Assembly: GCF_054482595.1 (NCBI RefSeq) | Contig: NZ_JBTHVH010000004.1 | DNA: 64,000 nucleotides | Source of the DNA: a plasmid | Reading direction: 5' to 3' (one strand) | Shown here: one piece after another, positions 1,155-43,154 of the stretch | How the letters are laid out: every line of letters starts with the position of its first letter | Numbering within the stretch: the first letter of the stretch is position 1 | Program-made: the position numbers and the translations under genes | Notes under the pieces: generated by a model | Told to the model about the DNA's origin: nothing | Database searches by the model: none | What the model saw: only the letters and a program-made list of their open reading frames with translations

Positions 1155-2066
1155 GTGATGACCCTGCAGGCATCCCCTGAGACCCGGTTAATGCGCGCCG
1201 AGGTGCAGCGGCATTATCCGCACATCTGGCAGGAGCTGGAGGGGCTGGCGCAGGGACTGGAGGCCACTGTTGATCAGGTCTTTGCCTGGAACTGCCGTGG
1301 CGATCTGGTGCGCTCAACGTCGGATGGCTGTACGACGGTGGCCGGGGTAAACGCCGCAGGCGAGCGGATTATCGCGCATAATGAAGACGGTTTTCCTCAG
1401 TTACGGGATGAATGCTTGCTGGCTACCATTACTCCGAGTCGCGGTCTGAGCTTTACGAGTTTTGCCTATCCGGGGTCGATTTGCGGCCACACCTTTGCGG
1501 TAAATGAAAAAGGTATCGTTAACACGGTGAATAACATCCGTGCAGTGTATCGTCCGCAGGGATTACCGCGTCAGATCCTGGCTCGCGCCTCGCTGAATGC
1601 GAACACCCTCGACGAGGCCATCACTATACTTACCGGCCAGCCGCGATCCGGGGCGTTTCACCATACGCTCGGGCAGCTGGGCGATGCGCGGCTGTTCAGC
1701 GTTGAGGCCACCGGTCAAGGCTGTTCCGTTCTACCCCTGACGACGGTAACCGGGCATGCCAACCATCTGGTGCATGCGGCACTGGCTGGCGTTGAGCAGA
1801 TCGTTACCGACAGTTCAGCGTCGCGGCAGTTACGCCTCGTGCAGTGGCGGGAAACGCAACCTCCGTTTGACGCCGCGGCGGCAAAAACCATTCTCTCAGA
1901 TACCCATGACGCAGAACTGCCAATTTACCGGCTGGCTGCCGACGATCCGGATGAGGAGAACACCCTCGCCACGGCAGTTTTCACCCTCGATGCCAACCAC
2001 GTCAGGTGGCAAATTTTCGACATTAACCGCGACGATGCTAAATTTCATGGAGAAGTGCGTGGGTGA
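1155..2066 (+). CDS. Ntn-hydrolase / peptidase C45 (acyl-CoA:6-APA acyltransferase-like) family protein
   Basis: 303-aa ORF with GTG start; DGCTT and AHNEDG motifs typical of C45 / choloylglycine-hydrolase fold. Confidence 0.45.
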   Translation: MMTLQASPETRLMRAEVQRHYPHIWQELEGLAQGLEATVDQVFAWNCRGDLVRSTSDGCTTVAGVNAAGERIIAHNEDGFPQLRDECLLATITPSRGLSFTSFAYPGSICGHTFAVNEKGIVNTVNNIRAVYRPQGLPRQILARASLNANTLDEAITILTGQPRSGAFHHTLGQLGDARLFSVEATGQGCSVLPLTTVTGHANHLVHAALAGVEQIVTDSSASRQLRLVQWRETQPPFDAAAAKTILSDTHDAELPIYRLAADDPDEENTLATAVFTLDANHVRWQIFDINRDDAKFHGEVRG

Positions 2067-2219
2067 AATAGCCGGTCGTCAGTCATAAAGGGCAGGGGAG
2101 TACCGTTGGCCCGGCGTTCGATAGTACCGTCCGGATACTGCCAGATATCGGCGTCCAGGGAGATGTCCTGAAGCGCGGTGTCCGGAATTTCAGGTTTGTG
2201 TCTCTACAAAGACTAACTA

Positions 2220-3035
2220 TCAGAAAAACTCATCGAGCATCAAATGAAACTGCAATTTATTCATATCAGGATTATCAATACCATATTTTTGAAAAAGCCG
2301 TTTCTGTAATGAAGGAGAAAATTCACCGAGGCAGTTCCATAGGATGGCAAGATCCTGGTATCGGTCTGCGATTCCGACTCGTCCAACATCAATACAACCT
2401 ATTAATTTCCCCTCGTCAAAAATAAGGTTATCAAGTGAGAAATCACCATGAGTGACGACTGAATCCGGTGAGAATGGCAAAAGCTTATGCATTTCTTTCC
2501 AGACTTGTTCAACAGGCCAGCCATTACGCTCGTCATCAAAATCACTCGCATCAACCAAACCGTTATTCATTCGTGATTGCGCCTGAGCGAGACGAAATAC
2601 GCGATCGCTGTTAAAAGGACAATTACTAACAGGAATCGAATGCAACCGGCGCAGGAACGCTGCCAGCGCATCAACAATATTTTCACCTGAATCAGGATAT
2701 TCTTCTAATACCTGGAATGCTGTTTTCCCGGGGAGCGCAGTGGTGAGTAACCATGCATCATCAGGAGTACGGATAAAATGCTTGATGGTCGGAAGAGGCA
2801 TAAATGCCGTCAGCCAGTTTAGTCTGACCATCTCATCTGTAACATCATTGGCAACGCTACCTTTGCCATGTTTCAGAAACAACTCTGGCGCATCGGGCTT
2901 CCCATACAATCGATAGATTGTCGCACCTGATTGCCCGACATTATCGCGAGCCCATTTATACCCATATAAATCAGCATCCAGGTTGGAATTTAATCGCGGC
3001 CTCGAGCAAGACGTTTCCCGTTGAATATGGCTCAT
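2220..3035 (-). CDS. aph(3')-Ia: Aminoglycoside 3'-phosphotransferase APH(3')-Ia (kanamycin/neomycin resistance, Tn903 type)
   Basis: 271-aa ORF MSHIQRETSCSRPRLNSN...HLMLDEFF, recalled as near-identical to Tn903 aphA1. Confidence 0.95.
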   Translation of the reverse strand: MSHIQRETSCSRPRLNSNLDADLYGYKWARDNVGQSGATIYRLYGKPDAPELFLKHGKGSVANDVTDEMVRLNWLTAFMPLPTIKHFIRTPDDAWLLTTALPGKTAFQVLEEYPDSGENIVDALAAFLRRLHSIPVSNCPFNSDRVFRLAQAQSRMNNGLVDASDFDDERNGWPVEQVWKEMHKLLPFSPDSVVTHGDFSLDNLIFDEGKLIGCIDVGRVGIADRYQDLAILWNCLGEFSPSLQKRLFQKYGIDNPDMNKLQFHLMLDEFF

Positions 3036-3262: not shown

Positions 3263-3264
3263 AA

Positions 3265-3303
3265 GGGGTCGTTTGCGGGAGAGGGCGAAATCCTACGCTA
3301 AGG
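3265..3303. repeat. Tn5393-type terminal inverted repeat (IRR downstream of strB)
   Basis: GGGGTCGTTTGCGGGAGAGGGCGAAATCCTACGCTAAGG followed by the conserved strB-proximal sequence. Confidence 0.85.
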
Positions 3304-3370
3304 CTTTGGCCAACGATATTCTCCGGTAAGATTGATGTGTTCCCAGGGGATAGGAGAAGTCGCTTGATAT

Positions 3371-4207
3371 CTAGTATGACGTCTGTCGCACCTGCTTGAT
3401 CGCGGCCGCGATAGCTAGATCGCGTTGCTCCTCTTCTCCATCCGCGTTCCAAGCTGCGGAAAGGCACCCATAAGCGTACGCCTGGTCGAGCAGGCGACGC
3501 GGATCGACGTCCAGCGCACGAGAGAATGCGTCCGCCATCTGTGCAATGCGTCTAGGATCGAGACAAAGGTCGTCTCTGTCAGCCGGATCGTAGAACATAT
3601 TGGCGGCGCCAAAGCCCACTTCACCGACCAGACCGACGGGATCTATCACCAGCCAGCCGCGACTGGAGAACATGATGTTTTCATGATGCAGATCGCCATG
3701 TAGCCCACGCAGTTCCGAGGCATTGCTCATCATTTGATCGGCTATAATCGCCGCGTGGACGTAGTCAGTTTGACAACCTGCGTTTTGATCATCGCGCGCC
3801 CGCTGAAACAAAGCTGCAAAGCGATCCCGGATCGGGAGAAGGGCAGAAGGCAGGGGTTCCTCAGATGCGGCATACAGCTTCGCCATTAGTTCCGCTGCAA
3901 TTTCGGTCGCCTGGTAGTCGCCGTGCTCGGCAACGATGTGAGAGAGCATTCGCTCCCCGGCATATTCGAGCAACATCAGATTGTTCTCACGACCGAGCAA
4001 CCGGACTGCTCCCCTCCCATTGCGCCATACCAGATAGTCGGCCCCGCGCAGTTCATCAGCAATGTCTTCTATAGGTTTCAATTCCTTGACGATTGCAGGA
4101 GTCCCGTCTGGCAATGAAACTTTCCAAACGAGGCTGGAAAAGGTGTCCGCAATGAGAACAGGTTGCGAAACGTGCCAATGAGCAGGAAAAACAGGCGGCA
4201 TGAACAT
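3371..4207 (-). CDS. strB: Aminoglycoside 6-phosphotransferase APH(6)-Id (StrB)
   Basis: ORF track 3371..4216; 278 aa from MFMPPVFPAHWHVSQPV... to ...AIKQVRQTSY; ATG overlaps strA stop by 1 nt. Confidence 0.95.
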   Translation of the reverse strand: MFMPPVFPAHWHVSQPVLIADTFSSLVWKVSLPDGTPAIVKELKPIEDIADELRGADYLVWRNGRGAVRLLGRENNLMLLEYAGERMLSHIVAEHGDYQATEIAAELMAKLYAASEEPLPSALLPIRDRFAALFQRARDDQNAGCQTDYVHAAIIADQMMSNASELRGLHGDLHHENIMFSSRGWLVIDPVGLVGEVGFGAANMFYDPADRDDLCLDPRRIAQMADAFSRALDVDPRRLLDQAYAYGCLSAAWNADGEEEQRDLAIAAAIKQVRQTSY

Positions 4208-5010
4208 CAACCCCAAGTCAGAGGGTCCAATCGCAGATAGAAGGCAAGGCGTTCGCGGTCGGGGGCTTCGATCCCCAATACATTGAATAGGACAGCGAAG
4301 GCGCGCTCTGCTTCATCTGGCGCTGCCCAGTTCTCTTCGGCGTTAGCAATCATGAGTGCCAAATCGGCATAGCGATCTGCTGTTCCGAGCCGCCCAAGGT
4401 CGATCAGACCCGTGCATTGAAGAGTTTTAGGGTCCACCATGAAGTTCGGCATGCAGGGATCACCATGGCAAACAACCATATCGGTGCGCTCTTGGTCGAG
4501 CCGCACCGGTAGCTCTCGTTCGACACGAGCCAAAAGATCGAGCTGCGGCGTACTCTTGTCCTCGTCCGGTAAGAAGTCGGGATTGACGGCATTGCGGGAC
4601 ACCACATCAACGGCGCGTCCGAACATTCGCGACAGCCTGCGCTCAAACGGACATTGATCAACCGATAGGCTGTGAACAGCGCCAAGTTGCTGCCCCATTG
4701 ACGGCCACGCTTTGAGCAAATCCGCTCCAGACAGATCAGCCGCCGGTACTCCCGGAATTGCCGTTATCACCAAGCATGCACCCTCCTGTTCCTCCTGCCA
4801 GTTGATCACCTCGGGGCAAGCCACACCTCGACCTTTGAGCCAAATGAGGCGGTCACGCTCTCCAGCGAGCTCACCGCGGCGGGAAGCAGGTGCGATTTTC
4901 GCGAAGGCATGCCCGTCACCACGTCGAAAAACAAAATCACCAGATTCTCCGCCTCTGACAGGCAACCAGTCAGAATGCGATTCACCAAAAAAAATATTAG
5001 TTCGATTCAA
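4207..5010 (-). CDS. strA: Aminoglycoside 3''-phosphotransferase APH(3'')-Ib (StrA)
   Basis: 267 aa from TTG start (LNRTNIFFGESHSDWLPV...) to ...YLRLDPLTWG; ORF track 4207..5196 is a longer upstream-extended frame. Confidence 0.95.
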   Translation of the reverse strand: MNRTNIFFGESHSDWLPVRGGESGDFVFRRGDGHAFAKIAPASRRGELAGERDRLIWLKGRGVACPEVINWQEEQEGACLVITAIPGVPAADLSGADLLKAWPSMGQQLGAVHSLSVDQCPFERRLSRMFGRAVDVVSRNAVNPDFLPDEDKSTPQLDLLARVERELPVRLDQERTDMVVCHGDPCMPNFMVDPKTLQCTGLIDLGRLGTADRYADLALMIANAEENWAAPDEAERAFAVLFNVLGIEAPDRERLAFYLRLDPLTWG

Positions 5011-5302
5011 TGGAGGTTCCTTCAGTTTTCTGATGAAGCGCGGAGGTGGCTCAACCTGCGAAAAGAAACGAGTTGCTATGGACTTGCACCGGTTGTGTTC
5101 CGGTCTATCTCTCATTTTAAGCGGCTTTTTTCTCAAATGCCACCGGCGATTTCCAGCCGAGTGTTGAATGTCTTCGGCGTGGATTATAAAAGCCATTTAC
5201 CCATATAATGCGCCTACTTATCAGCCTTTGGGACGTTGGGACGGTATTTTTCACTATATACCCCCAAGTTTTTAGACATGAAAAAAGGGTAATGACTCCA
5301 AC

Positions 5303-5806
5303 TTATTGATAGTGTTTTATGTTCAGATAATGCCCGATGACTTTGTCATGCAGCTCCACCGATTTTGAGAACGACAGCGACTTCCGTCCCAGCCGTGCCA
5401 GGTGCTGCCTCAGATTCAGGTTATGCCGCTCAATTCGCTGCGTATATCGCTTGCTGATTACGTGCAGCTTTCCCTTCAGGCGGGATTCATACAGCGGCCA
5501 GCCATCCGTCATCCATATCACCACGTCAAAGGGTGACAGCAGGCTCATAAGACGCCCCAGCGTCGCCATAGTGCGTTCACCGAATACGTGCGCAACAACC
5601 GTCTTCCGGAGCCTGTCATACGCGTAAAACAGCCAGCGCTGGCGCGATTTAGCCCCGACGTATCCCCACTGTTCGTCCATTTCCGCGCAGACGATGACGT
5701 CACTGCCCGGCTGTATGCGCGAGGTTACCGACTGCGGCCTGAGTTTTTTAAGTGACGTAAAATCGTGTTGAGGCCAACGCCCATAATGCGGGCTGTTGCC
5801 CGGCAT
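5303..5806 (-). CDS. insB: IS1 InsB (expressed as InsAB' by frameshifting)
   Basis: 167-aa ORF ...[37 protein letters not shown]... Confidence 0.85.
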
Positions 5807-6000
5807 CCAACGCCATTCATGGCCATATCAATGATTTTCTGGTGCGTACCGGGTTGAGAAGCGGTGTAAGTGAACTGCAGTTGCCATGTTTTACGGCAGT
5901 GAGAGCAGAGATAGCGCTGATGTCCGGCGGTGCTTTTGCCGTTACGCACCACCCCGTCAGTAGCTGAACAGGAGGGACAGCTGATAGAAACAGAAGCCAC
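5725..6000 (-). CDS. insA: IS1 InsA
   Basis: 91-aa [33 protein letters not shown]... Confidence 0.9.
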
Positions 6001-6055
6001 TGGAGCACCTCAAAAACACCATCATACACTAAATCAGTAAGTTGGCAGCATCACC

Positions 6056-6234
6056 CGACGCACTTTGCGCCGAATAAATACCTGTGACGGAAGATCACTT
6101 CGCAGAATAAATAAATCCTGGTGTCCCTGTTGATACCGGGAAGCCCTGGGCCAACTTTTGGCGAAAATGAGACGTTGATCGGCACGTAAGAGGTTCCAAC
6201 TTTCACCATAATGAAATAAGATCACTACCGGGCG
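6056..6234 (+). promoter_or_regulatory. Tn9 catA1 promoter/leader remnant; the cat coding sequence itself is absent
   Basis: Matches recalled Tn9/pACYC184 sequence between IS1 and the cat start codon (…TTTTGGCGAAAATGAGACGTTGATCGGCACGTAAGAGGTTCCAACTTTCACCATAATGAAATAAGATCACTACCGGGCG). Confidence 0.7.
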
Positions 6235-6793
6235 CTGAGAGATCCCCTCATAATTTCCCCAAAGCGTAACCATGTGTGAATAAATTTTGAGCTAGTAGGG
6301 TTGCAGCCACGAGTAAGTCTTCCCTTGTTATTGTGTAGCCAGAATGCCGCAAAACTTCCATGCCTAAGCGAACTGTTGAGAGTACGTTTCGATTTCTGAC
6401 TGTGTTAGCCTGGAAGTGCTTGTCCCAACCTTGTTTCTGAGCATGAACGCCCGCAAGCCAACATGTTAGTTGAAGCATCAGGGCGATTAGCAGCATGATA
6501 TCAAAACGCTCTGAGCTGCTCGTTCGGCTATGGCGTAGGCCTAGTCCGTAGGCAGGACTTTTCAAGTCTCGGAAGGTTTCTTCAATCTGCATTCGCTTCG
6601 AATAGATATTAACAAGTTGTTTGGGTGTTCGAATTTCAACAGGTAAGTTAGTTGCTAGAACCCATGGCTCCTTTGCCGACGCTGAGTAGATTTTAGGTGA
6701 CGGGTGGTGACAATGAGTCCGTGTCGAGCGCTGATTTTTTCGGCCTTTAGAGCGAGATTTATACAATAGAATTTGGCATGAGATTGGATTGCT
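6235..6793 (-). mobile_element. IS10 fragment (inside end plus 3' part of the transposase gene), cut by IS26
   Basis: Starts CTGAGAGATCCCCTCATAATTTCCCC (IS10 inside end); encodes the C-terminal 172 aa of an IS4-family transposase. Confidence 0.75.
6248..6766 (-). pseudogene. IS10 transposase, C-terminal fragment
   Basis: ORF ends ...TREDLLVAATLLAQNLFTHGYALGKL; 5' part removed by IS26. Confidence 0.75.
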
Positions 6794-7613
6794 GGCACTG
6801 TTGCAAAGTTAGCGATGAGGCAGCCTTTTGTCTTATTCAAAGGCCTTACATTTCAAAAACTCTGCTTACCAGGCGCATTTCGCCCAGGGGATCACCATAA
6901 TAAAATGCTGAGGCCTGGCCTTTGCGTAGTGCACGCATCACCTCAATACCTTTGATGGTGGCGTAAGCCGTCTTCATGGATTTAAATCCCAGCGTGGCGC
7001 CGATTATCCGTTTCAGTTTGCCATGATCGCATTCAATCACGTTGTTCCGGTACTTAATCTGTCGGTGTTCAACGTCAGACGGGCACCGGCCTTCGCGTTT
7101 GAGCAGAGCAAGCGCGCGACCATAGGCGGGCGCTTTATCCGTGTTGATGAATCGCGGGATCTGCCACTTCTTCACGTTGTTGAGGATTTTACCCAGAAAC
7201 CGGTATGCAGCTTTGCTGTTACGACGGGAGGAGAGATAAAAATCGACAGTGCGGCCCCGGCTGTCGACGGCCCGGTACAGATACGCCCAGCGGCCATTGA
7301 CCTTCACGTAGGTTTCATCCATGTGCCACGGGCAAAGATCGGAAGGGTTACGCCAGTACCAGCGCAGCCGTTTTTCCATTTCAGGCGCATAACGCTGAAC
7401 CCAGCGGTAAATCGTGGAGTGATCGACATTCACTCCGCGTTCAGCCAGCATCTCCTGCAGCTCACGGTAACTGATGCCGTATTTGCAGTACCAGCGTACG
7501 GCCCACAGAATGATGTCACGCTGAAAATGCCGGCCTTTGAATGGGTTCATGTGCAGCTCCATCAGCAAAAGGGGATGATAAGTTTATCACCACCGACTAT
7601 TTGCAACAGTGCC
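6794..7613 (-). mobile_element. IS26 copy 1
   Basis: 820 bp bounded by GGCACTGTTGCAAA and TTTGCAACAGTGCC. Confidence 0.97.
6846..7550 (-). CDS. tnp26: IS26 transposase Tnp26
   Basis: 234 aa from [18 protein letters not shown]... (track ORF 6846..7568 includes 6 extra upstream codons). Confidence 0.95.
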   Translation of the reverse strand: MNPFKGRHFQRDIILWAVRWYCKYGISYRELQEMLAERGVNVDHSTIYRWVQRYAPEMEKRLRWYWRNPSDLCPWHMDETYVKVNGRWAYLYRAVDSRGRTVDFYLSSRRNSKAAYRFLGKILNNVKKWQIPRFINTDKAPAYGRALALLKREGRCPSDVEHRQIKYRNNVIECDHGKLKRIIGATLGFKSMKTAYATIKGIEVMRALRKGQASAFYYGDPLGEMRLVSRVFEM

Positions 7614-7664
7614 ACTTGACCTGATAGTTTGGCTGTGAGCAATTATGTGCTTAGTGCATCTAAC
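7614..7664 (-). other. Start of class 1 integron 3'-CS (region upstream of qacEdelta1), cut by IS26
   Basis: Reverse complement GTTAGATGCACTAAGCACATAATTGCTCACAGCCAAACTATCAGGTCAAGT. Confidence 0.7.
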
Positions 7665-7702
7665 GTCAAAATCAGCGGCGCGTTTTTATGCGTCCGCTGG
7701 AT

Positions 7703-8524
7703 TTACTTGTTGTGCGGCGTCGCAGACTCATTGAACAACCTTTTTGCCTGCGCAATTACAGTTCTCGGAAGCTCGATATTCAGAGGTTCTGTCACGCTCT
7801 TGAACAATTCGAGACTCCACGTCCACGTTTGATGATAGGCTGCACATAGTGCTCTTGGTTCTGCACTGCTTGTGCATGCCAGATAGCGATTATACGAGTC
7901 CTCCGAGATATCCTTTTCGAGCGCGCGTGAAGGTGTCGGCCAGTGGTCTGTTGCCCCTTCGTGGAGTCGAACCAGCTTGAGTAGGTTTTCATGTGCTTTG
8001 CTGAGCAAAGCCCAGGCGCGAGCGTACTCTCCCCGATTTAAAAGATTGGCCCCAAAGAGCATCAGGCTGATGAGGTTCAACACAAGCCCTTCCACCAGCG
8101 GCGCGCCTTCACGTATCGGGGGACCGCCCACGAGAGCGCTTGCGTACCTTGACAACTCTCCTGATCGGTCCAACAAAACAGCCGCCTCAAGCGAGGGAAA
8201 CCACCCATAGCCTTGCCAAGTGGAAATGACCGGTATGTCCGATTTTCGCATGAAATGGAATTCACCGCGAATGCCGTTTTCAAAAAGTGCGGTGTGGTGG
8301 CCGAAGTCGTCCGGAAAGTAAGCAGCAACCGGACTTACGGCATTAAGCCACGAGCGCTGATCGAAATTTTCAAAATGGTCATCCTGGATGAACACTGCGA
8401 ATTCGATATCAGAGAACTCGTCACCCTCTCCGATAGCAAATGAGCCGAACATCAATGCCGCGATTATTCGTGCATCCTCATGACAACCTTCCTTGAAGAG
8501 TTCGATCATTTTCAGTTGAAGCAT
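7703..8524 (-). CDS. lnu(F): Lincosamide nucleotidyltransferase, Lnu(F)-type
   Basis: 273-aa ORF MLQLKMIELFKEGCHEDARIIAALMFGSFAIGEGDEFSDIEF... (NTase G-S...D-x-E motif); sits after aadA in the cassette array. Confidence 0.8.
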   Translation of the reverse strand: MLQLKMIELFKEGCHEDARIIAALMFGSFAIGEGDEFSDIEFAVFIQDDHFENFDQRSWLNAVSPVAAYFPDDFGHHTALFENGIRGEFHFMRKSDIPVISTWQGYGWFPSLEAAVLLDRSGELSRYASALVGGPPIREGAPLVEGLVLNLISLMLFGANLLNRGEYARAWALLSKAHENLLKLVRLHEGATDHWPTPSRALEKDISEDSYNRYLACTSSAEPRALCAAYHQTWTWSLELFKSVTEPLNIELPRTVIAQAKRLFNESATPHNK

Positions 8525-8655
8525 AGAAATATCCTTTTATTGAAGCCACAGATTATGAGGAAAGGTATACGCAGATTTTTGTTTTTTTTCGTCAGCACAA
8601 CGCCGGAGTTAAGCCGCCGCGCGTAGCGCGGTCGGCTTGAACGAATTGTTAGACA
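8525..8655 (-). other. aadA attC plus lnu(F) leader
   Basis: Reverse complement begins GTCTAACAATTCGTTCAAGCCGAC... (aadA attC-like imperfect palindrome). Confidence 0.6.
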
Positions 8656-9447
8656 TTATTTGCCGATTACCTTGGTGATCTCGCCTTTCACGTAGTGGAC
8701 AAATTCTTCCAACTGATCTGCGCGCGAGGCCAAGCGATCTTCTTCTTGTCCAAGATAAGCCTGTCTAGCTTCAAGTATGACGGGCTGATACTGGGCCGGC
8801 AGGCGCTCCATTGCCCAGTCGGCAGCGACATCCTTCGGCGCGATTTTGCCGGTTACTGCGCTGTACCAAATGCGGGACAACGTAAGCACTACATTTCGCT
8901 CATCGCCAGCCCAGTCGGGCGGCGAGTTCCATAGCGTTAAGGTTTCATTTAGCGCCTCAAATAGATCCTGTTCAGGAACCGGATCAAAGAGTTCCTCCGC
9001 CGCTGGACCTACCAAGGCAACGCTATGTTCTCTTGCTTTTGTCAGCAAGATAGCCAGATCAATGTCGATCGTGGCTGGCTCGAAGATACCTGCAAGAATG
9101 TCATTGCGCTGCCATTCTCCAAATTGCAGTTCGCGCTTAGCTGGATAACGCCACGGAATGATGTCGTCGTGCACAACAATGGTGACTTCTACAGCGCGGA
9201 GAATCTCGCTCTCTCCAGGGGAAGCCGAAGTTTCCAAAAGGTCGTTGATCAAAGCTCGCCGCGTTGTTTCATCAAGCCTTACGGTCACCGTAACCAGCAA
9301 ATCAATATCGCTGTATGGCTTCAGGCCGCCATCCACTGCGGAGCCGTACAAATGCACGGCCAGCAACGTTGATTCCAGATGGCGCTCAATGACGCTTAGC
9401 ACCTCTGATAGTTGGTTCGAAATTTCGATGGTCACCGCTACCCTCAT
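8656..9447 (-). CDS. aadA: Aminoglycoside (3'')(9)-adenylyltransferase AadA; aadA2-type N-terminus on an aadA1-type body
   Basis: 263 aa from MRVAVTIEISNQLSEVLSVIERHLES...; from about residue 55 identical to the aadA1 copy at 39702..40493 except ...KVIGK tail. Confidence 0.85.
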   Translation of the reverse strand: MRVAVTIEISNQLSEVLSVIERHLESTLLAVHLYGSAVDGGLKPYSDIDLLVTVTVRLDETTRRALINDLLETSASPGESEILRAVEVTIVVHDDIIPWRYPAKRELQFGEWQRNDILAGIFEPATIDIDLAILLTKAREHSVALVGPAAEELFDPVPEQDLFEALNETLTLWNSPPDWAGDERNVVLTLSRIWYSAVTGKIAPKDVAADWAMERLPAQYQPVILEARQAYLGQEEDRLASRADQLEEFVHYVKGEITKVIGK

Positions 9448-9595
9448 GATGTCTAACTTTGTTTTAGGGCGACTGCCCTGCTGCGTAACATCGTTGCTGC
9501 TCCATAACATCAAACATCGACCCACGGCGTAACGCGCTTGCTGCTTGGATGCCCGAGGCATAGACTGTACCCCAAAAAAACAGTCATAACAAGCC
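9448..9595 (-). promoter_or_regulatory. attI1 and 5'-CS leader of class 1 integron
   Basis: ...GCCCTAAAACAAAGTTAGAC immediately before aadA ATG; lies between aadA and the intI1 start. Confidence 0.75.
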
Positions 9596-9716
9596 ATGAA
9601 AACCGCCACTGCGCCGTTACCACCGCTGCGTTCGGTCAAGGTTCTGGACCAGTTGCGTGAGCGCATACGCTACTTGCATTACAGCTTACGAACCGAACAG
9701 GCTTATGTCCACTGGG
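9596..9716 (+). pseudogene. intI1: intI1, first 40 codons only (truncated by IS26)
   Basis: ATGAAAACCGCCACTGCGCCGTTACCACCG... identical to the start of the intI1 copy at 43780. Confidence 0.9.
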
Positions 9717-10536
9717 GGCACTGTTGCAAATAGTCGGTGGTGATAAACTTATCATCCCCTTTTGCTGATGGAGCTGCACATGAACCCATTCAAAGGCCGG
9801 CATTTTCAGCGTGACATCATTCTGTGGGCCGTACGCTGGTACTGCAAATACGGCATCAGTTACCGTGAGCTGCAGGAGATGCTGGCTGAACGCGGAGTGA
9901 ATGTCGATCACTCCACGATTTACCGCTGGGTTCAGCGTTATGCGCCTGAAATGGAAAAACGGCTGCGCTGGTACTGGCGTAACCCTTCCGATCTTTGCCC
10001 GTGGCACATGGATGAAACCTACGTGAAGGTCAATGGCCGCTGGGCGTATCTGTACCGGGCCGTCGACAGCCGGGGCCGCACTGTCGATTTTTATCTCTCC
10101 TCCCGTCGTAACAGCAAAGCTGCATACCGGTTTCTGGGTAAAATCCTCAACAACGTGAAGAAGTGGCAGATCCCGCGATTCATCAACACGGATAAAGCGC
10201 CCGCCTATGGTCGCGCGCTTGCTCTGCTCAAACGCGAAGGCCGGTGCCCGTCTGACGTTGAACACCGACAGATTAAGTACCGGAACAACGTGATTGAATG
10301 CGATCATGGCAAACTGAAACGGATAATCGGCGCCACGCTGGGATTTAAATCCATGAAGACGGCTTACGCCACCATCAAAGGTATTGAGGTGATGCGTGCA
10401 CTACGCAAAGGCCAGGCCTCAGCATTTTATTATGGTGATCCCCTGGGCGAAATGCGCCTGGTAAGCAGAGTTTTTGAAATGTAAGGCCTTTGAATAAGAC
10501 AAAAGGCTGCCTCATCGCTAACTTTGCAACAGTGCC
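9717..10536 (+). mobile_element. IS26 copy 2
   Basis: 820 bp with IS26 terminal IRs. Confidence 0.97.
9780..10484 (+). CDS. tnp26: IS26 transposase Tnp26
   Basis: 234 aa MNPFKGRHF... Confidence 0.95.
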   Translation: MNPFKGRHFQRDIILWAVRWYCKYGISYRELQEMLAERGVNVDHSTIYRWVQRYAPEMEKRLRWYWRNPSDLCPWHMDETYVKVNGRWAYLYRAVDSRGRTVDFYLSSRRNSKAAYRFLGKILNNVKKWQIPRFINTDKAPAYGRALALLKREGRCPSDVEHRQIKYRNNVIECDHGKLKRIIGATLGFKSMKTAYATIKGIEVMRALRKGQASAFYYGDPLGEMRLVSRVFEM

Positions 10537-14594: not shown

Positions 14595-14703
14595 CTGTCA
14601 GACCAAGTTTACTCATATATACTTTAGATTGATTTAAAACTTCATTTTTAATTTAAAAGGATCTAGGTGAAGATCCTTTTTGATAATCTCATGACCAAAA
14701 TCC

Positions 14704-14741
14704 CTTAACGTGAGTTTTCGTTCCACTGAGCGTCAGACCCC
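14704..14741. repeat. Tn2/Tn3 38-bp terminal inverted repeat (IRR after blaTEM)
   Basis: CTTAACGTGAGTTTTCGTTCCACTGAGCGTCAGACCCC. Confidence 0.9.
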
Positions 14742-15355
14742 GTATATCGCTTGCTGATTACGTGCAGCTTTCCCTTCAGGCGGGATTCATACAGCGGCCA
14801 GCCATCCGTCATCCATATCACCACGTCAAAGGGTGACAGCAGGCTCAGAAGACGCTCCAGTGTGGCCAGAGTGCGTTCACCGAAAACGTGCGCCACAACT
14901 GTCCTCCGTATCCTGTCATACGCGTAAAACAGCCAGCGCTGACGTGATTTAGCACCGACGTAGCCCCACTGTTCGTCCATTTCAGCGCAGACAATCACAT
15001 CACTGCCCGGTTGTATGCGCGAGGTTACCGACTGCGGCCTGAGTTTTTTAAGTGACGTAAAACCGTGTTGAGGCCAACGCCCATAATGCGGGCAGTTGCC
15101 CGGCATCCAACGCCATTCATGGCCATATCAATGATTTTCTGGTGCGTACCGGGTTGAGAAGCGGTGTAAGTGAACTGCAGTTGCCATGTTTTACGGCAGT
15201 GAGAGCAGAGATAGCGCTGGTGTCCGGCAGTGCTTTTGCCGTTACGCACCACCCCGTCAGTAGCTGAACAGGAGGGACAGCTGATAGAAACAGAAGCCAC
15301 TGGAGCACCTCAAAAACACCATCATACACTAAATCAGTAAGTTGGCAGCATCACC
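14742..15355 (-). mobile_element. IS1, truncated (lacks about 154 bp at the insB end)
   Basis: Internal IS1 sequence begins directly after the Tn2 IR; other end GGTGATGCTGCCAAC at 15341..15355; differs at several positions from the IS1 at 5288. Confidence 0.85.
15025..15300 (-). CDS. insA: IS1 InsA
   Basis: 91-aa [21 protein letters not shown]... Confidence 0.85.
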
Positions 15356-15725: not shown

Positions 15726-15830
15726 GTGACAACCCTCTGTCTAATGATATTTCGATAATACCAGAAATATCTTGACCAGAATTATATTTCGATTATTCTA
15801 GAAACGTAGATTTTGTCAAGAGGGTTTAGT

Positions 15831-16988: not shown

Positions 16989-17808
16989 GGCACTGTTGCA
17001 AATAGTCGGTGGTGATAAACTTATCATCCCCTTTTGCTGATGGAGCTGCACATGAACCCATTCAAAGGCCGGCATTTTCAGCGTGACATCATTCTGTGGG
17101 CCGTACGCTGGTACTGCAAATACGGCATCAGTTACCGTGAGCTGCAGGAGATGCTGGCTGAACGCGGAGTGAATGTCGATCACTCCACGATTTACCGCTG
17201 GGTTCAGCGTTATGCGCCTGAAATGGAAAAACGGCTGCGCTGGTACTGGCGTAACCCTTCCGATCTTTGCCCGTGGCACATGGATGAAACCTACGTGAAG
17301 GTCAATGGCCGCTGGGCGTATCTGTACCGGGCCGTCGACAGCCGGGGCCGCACTGTCGATTTTTATCTCTCCTCCCGTCGTAACAGCAAAGCTGCATACC
17401 GGTTTCTGGGTAAAATCCTCAACAACGTGAAGAAGTGGCAGATCCCGCGATTCATCAACACGGATAAAGCGCCCGCCTATGGTCGCGCGCTTGCTCTGCT
17501 CAAACGCGAAGGCCGGTGCCCGTCTGACGTTGAACACCGACAGATTAAGTACCGGAACAACGTGATTGAATGCGATCATGGCAAACTGAAACGGATAATC
17601 GGCGCCACGCTGGGATTTAAATCCATGAAGACGGCTTACGCCACCATCAAAGGTATTGAGGTGATGCGTGCACTACGCAAAGGCCAGGCCTCAGCATTTT
17701 ATTATGGTGATCCCCTGGGCGAAATGCGCCTGGTAAGCAGAGTTTTTGAAATGTAAGGCCTTTGAATAAGACAAAAGGCTGCCTCATCGCTAACTTTGCA
17801 ACAGTGCC
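16989..17808 (+). mobile_element. IS26 copy 4
   Basis: 820 bp with IS26 terminal IRs. Confidence 0.97.
17052..17756 (+). CDS. tnp26: IS26 transposase Tnp26
   Basis: 234 aa MNPFKGRHF... Confidence 0.95.
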   Translation: MNPFKGRHFQRDIILWAVRWYCKYGISYRELQEMLAERGVNVDHSTIYRWVQRYAPEMEKRLRWYWRNPSDLCPWHMDETYVKVNGRWAYLYRAVDSRGRTVDFYLSSRRNSKAAYRFLGKILNNVKKWQIPRFINTDKAPAYGRALALLKREGRCPSDVEHRQIKYRNNVIECDHGKLKRIIGATLGFKSMKTAYATIKGIEVMRALRKGQASAFYYGDPLGEMRLVSRVFEM

Positions 17809-36682: not shown

Positions 36683-37584
36683 TCAGCGATCGGCTCGTTG
36701 CCCTGCGCCGCTCCAAAGCCCGCGACGCAGCGCCGGCAGGCAGAGCAAGTAGAGGGCAGCGCCTGCAATCCATGCCCACCCGTTCCACGTTGTTATAGAA
36801 GCCGCATAGATCGCCGTGAAGAGGAGGGGTCCGACGATCGAGGTCAGGCTGGTGAGCGCCGCCAGTGAGCCTTGCAGCTGCCCCTGACGTTCCTCATCCA
36901 CCTGCCTGGACAACATTGCTTGCAGCGCCGGCATTCCGATGCCACCCGAAGCAAGCAGGACCATGATCGGGAACGCCATCCATCCCCGTGTCGCGAAGGC
37001 AAGCAGGATGTAGCCTGTGCCGTCGGCAATCATTCCGAGCATGAGTGCCCGCCTTTCGCCGAGCCGGGCGGCTACAGGGCCGGTGATCATTGCCTGGGCG
37101 AGTGAATGCAGAATGCCAAATGCGGCAAGCGAAATGCCGATCGTGGTCGCGTCCCAGTGAAAGCGATCCTCGCCGAAAATGACCCAAAGCGCGGCCGGCA
37201 CCTGTCCGACAAGTTGCATGATGAAGAAGACCGCCATCAGGGCGGCGACGACGGTCATGCCCCGGGCCCACCGGAACGAAGCGAGCGGGTTGAGAGCCTC
37301 CCGGCGTAACGGCCGGCGTTCGCCTTTGTGCGACTCCGGCAAAAGGAAACAGCCCGTCAGGAAATTGAGGCCGTTCAAGGCTGCCGCGGCGAAGAACGGA
37401 GCGTGGGGGGAGAAACCGCCCATCAGCCCACCGAGCACAGGTCCCGCGACCATCCCGAACCCGAAACAGGCGCTCATGAAGCCGAAGTGCCGCGCGCGCT
37501 CATCGCCATCAGTGATATCGGCAATATAAGCGCCGGCTACCGCCCCAGTCGCCCCGGTGATGCCGGCCACGATCCGCCCGATAT
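36683..37584 (-). pseudogene. tetA(A): tetA(A), 3' fragment with canonical C-terminus, 5'-truncated at a Tn2 IR
   Basis: Frame ...ITGATGAVAGAYIADITDG... to ...LRRGLWSGAGQRADR; same DNA as the inner part of the complete tetA(A) at 51931..53130. Confidence 0.9.
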
Positions 37585-39701: not shown

Positions 39702-40493
39702 TTATTTGCCGACTACCTTGGTGATCTCGCCTTTCACGTAGTGAACAAATTCTTCCAACTGATCTGCGCGCGAGGCCAAGCGATCTTCTTCTTGTCCAAG
39801 ATAAGCCTGTCTAGCTTCAAGTATGACGGGCTGATACTGGGCCGGCAGGCGCTCCATTGCCCAGTCGGCAGCGACATCCTTCGGCGCGATTTTGCCGGTT
39901 ACTGCGCTGTACCAAATGCGGGACAACGTAAGCACTACATTTCGCTCATCGCCAGCCCAGTCGGGCGGCGAGTTCCATAGCGTTAAGGTTTCATTTAGCG
40001 CCTCAAATAGATCCTGTTCAGGAACCGGATCAAAGAGTTCCTCCGCCGCTGGACCTACCAAGGCAACGCTATGTTCTCTTGCTTTTGTCAGCAAGATAGC
40101 CAGATCAATGTCGATCGTGGCTGGCTCGAAGATACCTGCAAGAATGTCATTGCGCTGCCATTCTCCAAATTGCAGTTCGCGCTTAGCTGGATAACGCCAC
40201 GGAATGATGTCGTCGTGCACAACAATGGTGACTTCTACAGCGCGGAGAATCTCGCTCTCTCCAGGGGAAGCCGAAGTTTCCAAAAGGTCGTTGATCAAAG
40301 CTCGCCGCGTTGTTTCATCAAGCCTTACGGTCACCGTAACCAGCAAATCAATATCACTGTGTGGCTTCAGGCCGCCATCCACTGCGGAGCCGTACAAATG
40401 TACGGCCAGCAACGTCGGTTCGAGATGGCGCTCGATGACGCCAACTACCTCTGATAGTTGAGTCGATACTTCGGCGATCACCACTTCCCTCAT
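39702..40493 (-). CDS. aadA1: Aminoglycoside (3'')(9)-adenylyltransferase AadA1
   Basis: 263 aa from MREVVIAEVSTQLSEVVGVIERHLEP... to ...VKGEITKVVGK; 16 bp after blaOXA-10 (fused cassette). Confidence 0.9.
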   Translation of the reverse strand: MREVVIAEVSTQLSEVVGVIERHLEPTLLAVHLYGSAVDGGLKPHSDIDLLVTVTVRLDETTRRALINDLLETSASPGESEILRAVEVTIVVHDDIIPWRYPAKRELQFGEWQRNDILAGIFEPATIDIDLAILLTKAREHSVALVGPAAEELFDPVPEQDLFEALNETLTLWNSPPDWAGDERNVVLTLSRIWYSAVTGKIAPKDVAADWAMERLPAQYQPVILEARQAYLGQEEDRLASRADQLEEFVHYVKGEITKVVGK

Positions 40494-40509
40494 GATGTTT
40501 AACTTTGTT

Positions 40510-41310
40510 TTAGCCACCAATGATGCCCTCACTTTCCATGATTTTGGTGGGAATGGATTTTCTTAGCGGCAACTTACTTTCGTTGTCTATATCCATGTTA
40601 AAGGCGAAAAAGTAAACCTCTGTCTCCTTCTCAACCCACCCAACCCACCATGCGACACCAGGATTTGACTCAGTTCCCACACCAGAAAAACCAGTTTTTG
40701 AATGCACTAGATATTCAGGTGCCGCCTCCGTTACCAAAGCCTCTTTTACTATTAGCTGGTTTTCTTTAGATGCTGACAATTTATTTAAATATAGAGACTC
40801 TAGAAACTCCACTTGATTAACTGCGGAAATTCTAAGCTGGCCTTCCAACCAGAATTTGTCAATGCCACCACTGATATTCTGGTTGCCATAGGAAAATTTT
40901 TTAAGGTATTTCTGCATTCTTACTTCGCCAACTTCTCTGGCGATTTGTTGAAATACGGGAACAGCTGAAACTTGTATTGCCCCTCTTAAGGTCAAGTCTC
41001 TTTCCCATTGCTTCATGGCTCTTGGCTTTCCGTCCCATTTGAAAACCTGATGCTCATTCTTTATGACACCAGTTTCTAGGCCGATAATTGCGTTGGGGAT
41101 CTTAAATGTTGATGCTGGAAGATATTCCTTTGATGCACGAGCTAAGTCATTGGTAGCGCAGGATTTACTGCTACTTTTACAAAGCACGAAGACACCATTG
41201 ACGGCTTCGGCAGAGAACTCTTTGTTCCAAGACGTATTTTCTGTAATTGAACCAGCTAATGCCGTACTCGAAAGACACGCGATAATTACATATGCGGCAA
41301 ATGTTTTCAT
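40510..41310 (-). CDS. blaOXA-10: Class D beta-lactamase OXA-10 family
   Basis: 266-aa [35 protein letters not shown]...STFK...KTG... Confidence 0.9.
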
Positions 41311-41574: not shown

Positions 41575-42834
41575 TCAACGATTGGGATTTGATGTACTTT
41601 CCGCACTTTGTAGCGCGACCACATCATGCTCCCCCTGGCCGCGAGAGCCCTTCACTCGGGAAACACAAGACAGACCGAGCACGACTGTTGCAAGGGTCAA
41701 ACAGTACACGACAACCGGCCAAGCCGTGTTGCGCGGCAACAGCGAAATGATCAACGTTCCGATGCTTCCTAGCAGTACACCGCCCAAGCAGAAGTAGACT
41801 GCCGTGACCGTTCCAGCAACATGGTCGAATCCTCGAAGAGCGCCATTGGGCGACACAGATACCGCTGTGGCGACACCAATACCCACTAGCCACATTGGAG
41901 CAATAAAGCCTAACACGGACTGCGAAGCCCATATTTCGGTGATGGCAAGCAATACTGCTCCAGCTATCAGGCATCCCATTCCCATTCGCAAGACACTTGG
42001 GCTGCCCCACTTGGGTATCACACGCCCCATAAAACGAGCCGTAAACACCATGGCAATTGCCACTGTGGCGAACAGCAGGCTGAAGCCAAGCTGAGACACA
42101 CCTTGCCTGCCCATCATTAGTCCGGGCGCAATGGAGAAAAAGACGAAGAAGCTACCCATTCCAGCGGCGTAACACAACGTGTACAACCAGAAGTTCAGGC
42201 ACTTAACGGGGAGTAGCAGCTGCGACCATTGCAAGCCCGCAACTCGTTGCACCCGGGTTTCAGGCCAGAATCGCCACGCTGCTGCAGATGCAGCGATCAT
42301 GCCCAAACCTAGAAACGCAAAGATAGCCCGCCACCCAAGCCACATGTCGACGAGCGCTCCGAGCAATGGGCCTACCGCCGGGACCATGGCCAGCATGGAT
42401 CCGAGTATGCCGTAAATGACATTACTTTCCTCGCGACCTGCGTAAATGTCACGTACTGTTGCAAATGTGGAAACAAGGCACGCCGAGGCACCACAAGCCT
42501 GAAGAATCCGAAGCCCCAGAAAGACTTCAGCCGATGACGTAAGAGCGAGGCCCATTGACGCCACAACGTAGGCGAGGCCACCTCCCAGTAGAACGGGGCG
42601 GCGCCCCAGTCGGTCCGATAGCGGTCCAAACAAGAGCTGACCGGCACCAATCATGACCAAGTACGTTGTCAGCGTAAGCTGAATTGTGCTCGCTGTCGTA
42701 CCAAGCGCGTTTGGCATAAACGGCACTGCTGGCAAGTACATGTCCATGCCGAGTGATGCCAATAAATCGAACGGTGATAACAACAACACCGTGGCGGCAA
42801 GGGAGTACCGCCAACTAAAGTTTTTTGAGCGCAC
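41575..42834 (-). CDS. cmlA: Chloramphenicol efflux MFS transporter CmlA
   Basis: 419 aa from GTG start (RSKNFSWRYSLAATVLLLSPFD...); track ORF 41575..42882 is a longer upstream frame. Confidence 0.9.
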   Translation of the reverse strand: MRSKNFSWRYSLAATVLLLSPFDLLASLGMDMYLPAVPFMPNALGTTASTIQLTLTTYLVMIGAGQLLFGPLSDRLGRRPVLLGGGLAYVVASMGLALTSSAEVFLGLRILQACGASACLVSTFATVRDIYAGREESNVIYGILGSMLAMVPAVGPLLGALVDMWLGWRAIFAFLGLGMIAASAAAWRFWPETRVQRVAGLQWSQLLLPVKCLNFWLYTLCYAAGMGSFFVFFSIAPGLMMGRQGVSQLGFSLLFATVAIAMVFTARFMGRVIPKWGSPSVLRMGMGCLIAGAVLLAITEIWASQSVLGFIAPMWLVGIGVATAVSVSPNGALRGFDHVAGTVTAVYFCLGGVLLGSIGTLIISLLPRNTAWPVVVYCLTLATVVLGLSCVSRVKGSRGQGEHDVVALQSAESTSNPNR

Positions 42835-43154
42835 GAAACCATCTCCTTGAACAAAGGATTTGGCGGCGCTCCCGTAGAGCAAAAGGATTCATGAGAACGC
42901 CGCAACAACCGAAAAATGAAGGTTGCTGCGGCTTACTTGTCTGCGTTCTTGGAAGTGCTCATCTGCTGACTATCTCATGATTGAATTTGAATCGTAACAA
43001 CTTTCAAGCAACTCTGCGAGGAGCCTTATTGTGCGCCCAACGCCGCCATAAACGGCGACAGGGTGGCGCGCCTATTGCGCATAAAATGGCGAAGCCATGC
43101 GCAACAGGCGCGGAATCTCTGGCGTCCGGTTTGATGGCTTTGTTATGCAAAGGA

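Follow-up and report, generated by a model that had tools for sequence, protein, structure and literature searches.

Serially truncated remnants of a Tn9-like catA1 transposon and of IS10 in the multidrug-resistance region of a large conjugative plasmid

The described elements that lie closest to the segment analyzed here are the catA1 transposons of the Tn9 type, in which two directly repeated copies of IS1 surround catA1, and IS10-Right, the IS4-family insertion sequence of Tn10. The passenger DNA is 1102 bp long in Tn9 and 1547 bp long in the Tn9-like element, and the passenger of the Tn9-like part of Tn2670 derives from Atlantibacter hermannii (PMC12494131). The plasmid R100 (NC_002134) has both the Tn9-like catA1 segment and Tn10, and it served as the reference for alignment. 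Two further plasmid contexts are relevant. The first is a Tn10-catA1 junction carried mostly by IncF plasmids (pMG336, p13C1079T-1, the pPCN033 plasmid and others), in which the IS10 beside cat is the left arm of Tn10, with tetB in the transposon and gltS adjoining the inside end. The second is the blaNDM-5 context of pEC6622-1 (IncHI2/IncHI2A), which has been drawn as IS26-ΔISVsa5-IS3000-IS1A in a paper with 0 mentions of “catA1” (PMC12918755).

Comparison of these systems with the window (the whole 64-kb stretch of plasmid DNA that was analyzed) identifies a segment that is a remnant both of a Tn9-like transposon and of IS10, neither of them intact, and that constitutes a non-functional rearrangement scar in the multidrug-resistance region of a large conjugative plasmid (Table 1). 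Of what makes up Tn9 and the Tn9-like elements, the window retains one IS1 and 179 bp of the passenger; it lacks the second bounding IS1, catA1 and the remaining passenger DNA. R100 positions 21992-21046 are collinear with window positions 5288-6234 in a gap-free alignment of 99.58% identity, and the four mismatches all fall within IS1, at 5752-5794. The IS1 is 99.5% identical to the IS1 beside catA1 in R100, it abuts the cat upstream DNA at the same base as in the Tn2670 segment of R100/NR1 and in Tn9, and the 179 bp that follow are identical to R100 21224-21046, with no mismatch. Since the four pieces of the segment match at full length and at 99.6-100% identity, chance can be discounted.

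The sequence-only reading of this DNA had named an IS1, Tn9-type cat upstream DNA, an IS10 inside end and an IS26, all of which are borne out at their positions by full-length matches to R100 and to other IS26 copies. It had also given the length of the cat promoter and leader beside IS1 as 179 bp, which the R100 alignment reproduces, and the mistaken leader sequence that it had named as a ground for refutation is excluded, as both the 179-bp leader and the 559-bp IS10 portion are found exactly in R100. The cat gene was rightly described as absent: BLAST of the Tn9-like region of R100, and of Tn10 with IS10R, against the full 64-kb window returned no catA1 and no second IS10 fragment. The same reading had interpreted the arrangement as nested scars of three successive IS events. 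The IS events themselves stand, including the cutting of IS10 by IS26 (the 559 bp of IS10 end at 6793 and IS26 runs from 6794), but the arrangement is one of serial truncation and not of nesting, and the events number more than three, as a 975-bp deletion described below must be counted as well, together with an IS3000 insertion in derivative plasmids.

Table 1. Coordinates of the scar, of the DNA adjoining it and of resistance genes in the window
Feature	Position	Strand	Remarks
88-bp fragment adjoining the outer end of IS1	5200-5287	.	also present in IncN plasmid backbone
Complete IS1	5288-6055	- (transposase)	768 bp; outer end 5288; end facing the cat passenger 6055
catA1 upstream DNA of a Tn9-like element (promoter region and first part of leader)	6056-6234	+	179 bp
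TACCGGGCG, one copy of the putative 9-bp IS10 target-site duplication	6226-6234	+	directly before the IS10 inside end
IS10 remnant, inside-end-proximal 559 of 1329 bp	6235-6793	-	100% IS10-Right
Complete IS26	6794-7613	-	820 bp; tnp26 6846-7550, - strand
Lnu(F)	7706-8524		
cmlA1	41578-42882		
floR	53733-54944		

The position of the IS10 relative to the cat gene can be read directly from R100: its catA1 start codon ATG lies at 21001, and 21046 is the counterpart of the last base that the window retains. The stretch TATTTTTTGAGTTATCGAGATTTTCAGGAGCTAAGGAAGCTAAA, of 44 nt, is missing between the break and the ATG. IS10 therefore interrupts the 5' untranslated leader at a point 44 nt before the ATG, and does not lie exactly where the coding region would begin, as had been proposed. 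The ribosome-binding region lies within the missing 44 nt and is thus absent from the window. Within the part that is retained, TGAGACGTTGATCGGCA at 6168-6184 is the putative CRP site and CATAAT at 6208-6213 the putative -10 element of the cat promoter. The scan for sigma-70 consensus promoters did not call this weak, activator-dependent promoter within 6056-6234; the lone promoter-like site that was returned is at 6048-6021 on the - strand, inside IS1, and no terminators were predicted in 5950-6900. The strand geometry and the lack of a predicted terminator would allow the orphaned, catabolite-sensitive cat promoter (~6168-6213) to fire still and its transcript to cross what is left of IS10 and enter IS26 in antisense orientation to tnp26, an idea that we regard as highly improbable; if it were true, the activity of this IS26 copy would depend on the carbon source. 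A more precise name for the cat segment than Tn9 is the Tn9-like part of Tn2670 (the R100/NR1 type), although the 179 bp taken alone do not discriminate between that part and Tn9 proper.

The IS10 inside-end terminus CTGAGAGATCCCC begins at 6235, and the terminal sequence from this position (CTGAGAGATCCCCTCATAA...) is the same as that of the inside ends of both IS10R and IS10L of R100. The two arms can be distinguished over the length of the remnant: the window sequence is 100% identical to IS10-Right of R100 (43950-44508), IS10-Left differs from it at 7 positions, and the IS10R-type base is present at all 7. What is left of the transposase is the C-terminal part of ~181 codons (6248-6793, - strand), the N-terminal ~221 of 402 codons being gone, so that there is neither a full 1329-bp IS10 with an outside end nor an intact 402-codon reading frame. 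Relatives are annotated accordingly with an ISVsa5-family transposase that is missing its N-terminus (NCBI PGAP; ISVsa5 corresponds to IS10). Loss of the outside end has also removed the start and promoter of the transposase gene, and presumably pOUT and the RNA-OUT region; an Rfam scan of 4800-8000 gave no match. The remnant, with one inside end only, cannot transpose.

The nine bases that precede the inside end allow the missing half of the IS10 insertion to be sought elsewhere. The predicted reciprocal junction, in which an IS10 outside end is followed by TACCGGGCG, the remaining leader and cat, was used as a query and is present base for base in 19 PLSDB records and in 20 complete E. coli records, mostly of the IncF type. 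In pMG336 and p13C1079T-1, for example, the outside end is followed by TACCGGGCG, then by TATTTTTT... and the ATG of an intact catA1, and the orientation of IS10 relative to cat is the same as in the window. The IncF junction is thus the complement of the scar: it shares the 9-mer target and the IS10 orientation, but retains the outside end and catA1, and has lost the promoter and IS1. A single IS10 insertion that duplicates 9 bp would leave just this pattern, the same 9-mer being bordered by an inside end in one case and by an outside end in the other. One copy of the 9-mer is present in the window, and the second is found only in other plasmids, beside an IS10 outside end; no single record contains both. 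The cat gene of the IncF lineage keeps 53 nt of upstream DNA without its own promoter. IS10 is known to possess an outward promoter, pOUT (PMC9330008), and this cat gene is presumably transcribed from it.

The IS10 copies on the IncF side carry further information in the positions that distinguish the two arms of Tn10. Beside cat, 18 of the 19 copies are of the IS10L type throughout, up to position 1306 of 1329. The copy in pMG336 is a mosaic, with IS10L-type bases at positions 30-81 from the inside end and IS10R-type bases at 427-1306, as would be expected if a solo copy of the IS10R type, located in the leader, had recombined with IS10-Left of Tn10. The copies that are entirely IS10L-type are poorly explained by a single crossover with such a solo copy, and may reflect later gene conversion or independent insertions.

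On the distal side, the IS10 remnant is cut by an IS26 that is identical to the 6 other copies in the window (7 in all), and that has the 820-bp length, the 14-bp terminal inverted repeats GGCACTGTTGCAAA and the intact tnp26 of this element; relatives annotate it as an IS26 transposase. It lacks an 8-bp target duplication, as its flanks are GGATTGCT and ACTTGACC, in contrast to the copy at 16989-17808, which has CTTCTGGT on both sides. Nor is a partner flank of GGATTGCT or its complement, of the kind left by IS26-mediated inversion or deletion within the window, present at any of the 7 copies. The mismatched flanks indicate a history of deletion, recombination or cointegrate formation. To the left the IS26 truncates IS10, and to the right it truncates the lnu(F)-aadA cassette array of a class 1 integron, in which 7614-7665 corresponds to the boundary between the cassette end and the 3'-CS in R100 and is followed by lnu(F) and aadA. 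Since the flanks differ, no partner is found and an integron end lies on the right, this IS26 joins two unrelated truncated pieces, a common product of such IS26 reactions. The loss of catA1 is attributable to an IS26 event that came after the IS10 insertion; IS10 did not replace cat.

At the other end of the segment, 5288-6055 shows the size, terminal inverted repeats (GGTAATGACTCC... and ...GGCAGCATCACC) and insA/insB' frames of the IS1 family, with open reading frames at 5725-6000 and 5303-5806, both on the - strand, and it is annotated in relatives as IS1A with a programmed frameshift. A simple insertion of IS1 produces a target duplication of 8-9 bp. No such duplication is present here, the flanks being TGAAAAAAG and CGACGCACT, as is to be expected where Tn9-like passenger DNA lies on one side and an adjacent deletion of 975 bp ends on the other. 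The DNA to the left of IS1 consists of strB-strA, the end of the Tn5393 tnpR, the 3' end of IS1133 (5079-5199) and the 88-bp fragment, which is found separately beside an MBL-fold hydrolase gene in pJIE137 (IncN) and in pAMA1167-NDM-5. Positions 3264-5287 of the window correspond to 7115-9138 of a related record (L012), in which IS1 starts only at 10114, while in the window it starts immediately. The same DNA to the left, including strAB and the IS1133 remnant, is present in pCF2206-1 and in pNCYU-25-82-1_MCR3, an IncHI2A plasmid, but both continue for 975 bp more through the MBL-fold hydrolase gene and then, unlike the window, enter an intact IS1-leader-catA1-GNAT arrangement. As these relatives carry 975 bp extra beside IS1, the lineage of the window has lost these 975 bp, exactly up to the outer end of IS1. 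A loss of this form is typical of IS1 adjacent deletion, and the two relatives probably show the form of the locus before IS10 and IS26 acted. A further piece of IS1 in the window, at 14741-15355, is truncated by Tn2, lies 8.7 kb away and has different adjoining DNA.

These observations can be assembled into a history that we consider likely to be correct, in which one IS10 inserted into the cat leader with a 9-bp duplication, an IS26 event later removed the distal part of IS10 together with cat, and the 975-bp deletion flush with IS1 was a further event. The starting arrangement would have begun with strB-strA and the IS1133 remnant, followed by the IncN-like fragment and IS1, and then by the promoter, leader and coding region of catA1 and the remainder of the Tn9-like/Tn2670 element. 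An IS10 of the IS10-Right type would then have entered the leader by cut-and-paste transposition, 44 nt upstream of the ATG, and, to judge from the junction sequences, would have duplicated TACCGGGCG, with its inside end toward IS1 and the promoter and its outside end toward cat. The subsequent IS26 event would have eliminated the outside-end 770 bp of IS10, catA1 and all that lay beyond, and joined the remnant to the end of the lnu(F)-aadA integron. The truncation is evident in the sequence, and its route may have been any of three: formation of a cointegrate, an adjacent deletion, or an insertion after which two IS26 copies recombined. The deletion at the outer end of IS1, in which the MBL-fold hydrolase gene was lost, is established by comparison with the relatives, and could have occurred at any point relative to the IS10 and IS26 events. 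The complementary part of this IS10 insertion would have survived among the IncF plasmids, recombined with IS10-Left of Tn10.

The single-insertion model combines two half-junctions from different plasmid lineages and is most likely the correct one, but it must be weighed against the case in which IS10 inserted twice, independently, into the same 9-bp target and in the same orientation. The scar in the window would then still be an IS10 insertion truncated by IS26, but it would have no ancestor in common with the IncF junction. This would account for an IS10R-type copy in the window as against IS10L-type copies throughout in 18 of the 19 IncF plasmids, it agrees with the general knowledge that IS10 reuses preferred targets, and it is compatible with the lack of any complete intermediate, IS1-leader-IS10-TACCGGGCG-catA1, among the matches to a synthetic 1663-nt query in PLSDB and the complete E. 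coli genomes. The three best matches to that query, in Shigella dysenteriae plasmids, have a different arrangement, in which IS10R is truncated by IS1. The 25-mers CACTACCGGGCGCTGAGAGATCCCC and GGGGATTCATCAGTACCGGGCGTAT, which would lie ~1.33 kb apart in the intermediate of a single insertion, and CACTACCGGGCGCTGATGAATCCCC, which represents the whole-Tn10 version, define the junctions concerned. Preferred-target reuse is difficult to reconcile with the site itself. The consensus target of IS10 is NGCTNAGCN, and by our own count TACCGGGCG matches it at 3 of the 6 specified positions, so that the site is not an obvious or canonical hotspot. Both the position, to the base, and the orientation are the same in the two lineages. 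In addition, the pMG336 hybrid has the mosaic predicted by recombination with a solo IS10R-type copy, and an origin of the IncF junction in the insertion of a whole Tn10 predicts a junction of the leader, TACCGGGCG and an outside end, of which there is none in PLSDB or in 5,426 complete E. coli genomes. Two independent insertions are on these grounds unlikely.

Two observations suggest a rearrangement promoted by a Tn10 resident on this replicon, both inside ends of which would have attacked the cat leader in an inside-out deletion or inversion: the leader is joined to an inside end, as generally happens in Tn10-promoted deletions and inversions, and Tn10 and Tn9-like elements coexist on plasmids such as R100. 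Such an event places inside ends on both sides of the target, but the only other junction at this 9-bp site has an outside end, and among the matches inspected there was no second inside-end junction with TACCGGGCG, for which the expected form is an inside end followed by TACCGGGCGTATTTTTT; this mechanism is accordingly very unlikely. Illegitimate recombination at a microhomology was also considered, because BLAST hinted at three bases (6232-6234) common to the leader and the interior of Tn10, but inspection reduced these to two matches and a mismatch, explained by the GC in the target consensus of IS10, and the idea was rejected. With 7 copies of IS26 the region is rich in repeats, and the 179 bp also occur as a cat promoter fragment that is frequent in cloning vectors; misassembly across IS repeats is one conceivable source of error, and stray DNA from a laboratory construct (a mini-Tn10 Cm derivative or a vector of the pACYC184 type, for instance) is another. 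The probability of such an artefact is negligible: the junction lies in unique sequence and not within a repeat, mini-Tn10 constructs do not carry 559 bp of inside-end IS10, the identical junction occurs in 47 complete, independently assembled plasmids from many laboratories, hosts and years, and the derivatives that bear IS3000 with its own target duplication attest to evolution in nature. The reading retained is therefore one IS10 insertion followed by truncation by IS26.

The 47 plasmids were found in PLSDB with the leader/IS10 junction as the query (6140-6330), which they match at 100% identity. They are about 140-370 kb in size, come from E. coli, Salmonella, Klebsiella and E. fergusonii, mostly isolated from animals and people in China, and are IncHI2 in the few cases in which the replicon type was noted. 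Among complete E. coli genomes, 33 contain the wider stretch from IS1 to IS26 (5950-6900). JGI metagenome contigs, scanned for exact patterns with either IS10 end, and GTDB species-representative genomes, scanned with the inside end only, gave 0 matches. The blaNDM-5 sub-lineage represented by pEC6622-1 has the same IS1, leader remnant, IS10 remnant and IS26 as the window, base for base; it differs in having the NDM-5 module beyond IS26 and an IS3000 in the leader remnant, 11 bp from IS1, with a 5-bp duplication, ACTTT. Because this IS3000 lies inside the remnant with a duplication of its own, the scar is older than the NDM-5 derivatives. The published drawing of pEC6622-1, which omits the cat remnant, was the only representation of an IS1-cat leader-IS10 junction found in the literature; several literature matches to “IS10” were really to IS102. 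RefSeq likewise annotates IS1A, an ISVsa5-family transposase and IS26, and leaves the 179 bp between IS1A and the transposase blank. The structure is thus already known from dozens of public sequences, and all of its components and steps are of the textbook kind. What is added here is the identity of the unannotated 179 bp, the exact position of the IS10 at -44, and the link through the 9-bp target to the IncF Tn10-catA1 junction.

The value of these additions is mainly for annotation and for plasmid history, and no new mechanism is involved. The 179 bp, which neither public records nor the single published drawing of the region annotate, comprise the promoter of catA1 together with some of its leader. 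As the 9-bp target is common to the scar and to the IncF Tn10-catA1 junction, the two are linked, and the junction CACTACCGGGCG/CTGAGAGATCC can be used as a cheap diagnostic marker for a lineage of large plasmids (IncHI2 where typed), some members of which now carry blaNDM-5. Between 6056 and 6793 no functional protein can be expressed, there is no capacity for self-movement, and the cat promoter is orphaned, while the IS1 and IS26 on either side are intact and presumably active elements. Phenicol resistance is kept in the window through cmlA1 and floR, and the loss of catA1 would therefore not be selected against and costs no phenicol resistance. The scar also accounts for the presence of cat-derived sequence without catA1 in these plasmids.

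The loss of DNA beside the outer end of IS1 is revealed by comparison of the window with two relatives that retain catA1. Relative to the loci L012 (9139-10113) and L011 of these plasmids, 975 bp are missing from the window between the 5200-5287 fragment and IS1, flush with the outer IS1 end; pCF2206-1 and the IncHI2A plasmid pNCYU-25-82-1_MCR3, unlike the window, keep the gene for an MBL-fold hydrolase and have IS1, leader and catA1 intact. The 975-bp loss looks like an IS1 adjacent deletion. The segment upstream of strA, at 5030-5199, is a remnant of Tn5393 with IS1133, whose components are listed in the table together with resistance genes of the window.

Components of the Tn5393/IS1133 remnant and resistance genes, with window coordinates
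Feature	Window position	Detail
Stretch in common with RSF1010-type context	before the Tn5393 tnpR end	32 bp, upstream of strA
Tn5393 tnpR end	5030-5078	after the 32-bp RSF1010-type stretch
IS1133 3' end	5079-5199	codes for ...NPRRRHSTLGWKSPVAFEKKAA*
aadA-type gene (one of 2)	8659-9666	
tet(A), truncated	36686-37570	C-terminal 295 codons
aadA-type gene (one of 2)	39705-40532	
cmlA1	41578-42882	
tet(A), complete	51856-53127	
floR	53733-54944	

The cat leader remnant has been altered further in the blaNDM-5 derivatives, where it is interrupted by IS3000 (4736-8030 in the pEC6622-1 locus, corresponding to window 6062-6066) and the insertion is accompanied by its 5-bp duplication, ACTTT. This region of pEC6622-1 has been drawn in a publication as IS26-ΔISVsa5-IS3000-IS1A, and the cat-derived DNA goes unrecognised there (PMC12918755). 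In the IncF-type plasmid pMG336, the IS10 that adjoins catA1 (L005, 5710-7038) is a mosaic of IS10-Left and IS10-Right with a crossover between positions 81 and 427, counted from the inside end. The IS10-Right of the same Tn10 ends at position 692, where it is cut by the end of a Tn2 carrying blaTEM-1 (L008, 7787-8478).

Because cmlA1 and floR are both present, phenicol efflux is encoded despite the catA1 deletion. The co-occurrence of a truncated and a complete tet(A) and of two aadA-type genes in one window indicates that modules have been duplicated or reshuffled. At 1155-3035, the aphA1 gene (aph(3')-Ia) adjoins a truncated C45-family peptidase gene; Klebsiella michiganensis was recently identified as the origin of a passenger with this arrangement (PMC12670165).

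A second, 96% identical copy of IS1 (14640-15355) has the same orientation but is missing the first 153 bp; the Tn2 inverted repeat located after blaTEM-1 truncates it. Of the seven copies of IS26, the one at 16989-17808 alone is flanked by a clean 8-bp target duplication (CTTCTGGT). This copy entered a permease-like gene, which starts at 15813, by simple insertion. Downstream of floR, an IS6-family element with just 75.6% identity to IS26 (56908-57726) adjoins a truncated ISCR-type transposase gene (56079-56912) and a relaxase fragment (55164-56045).
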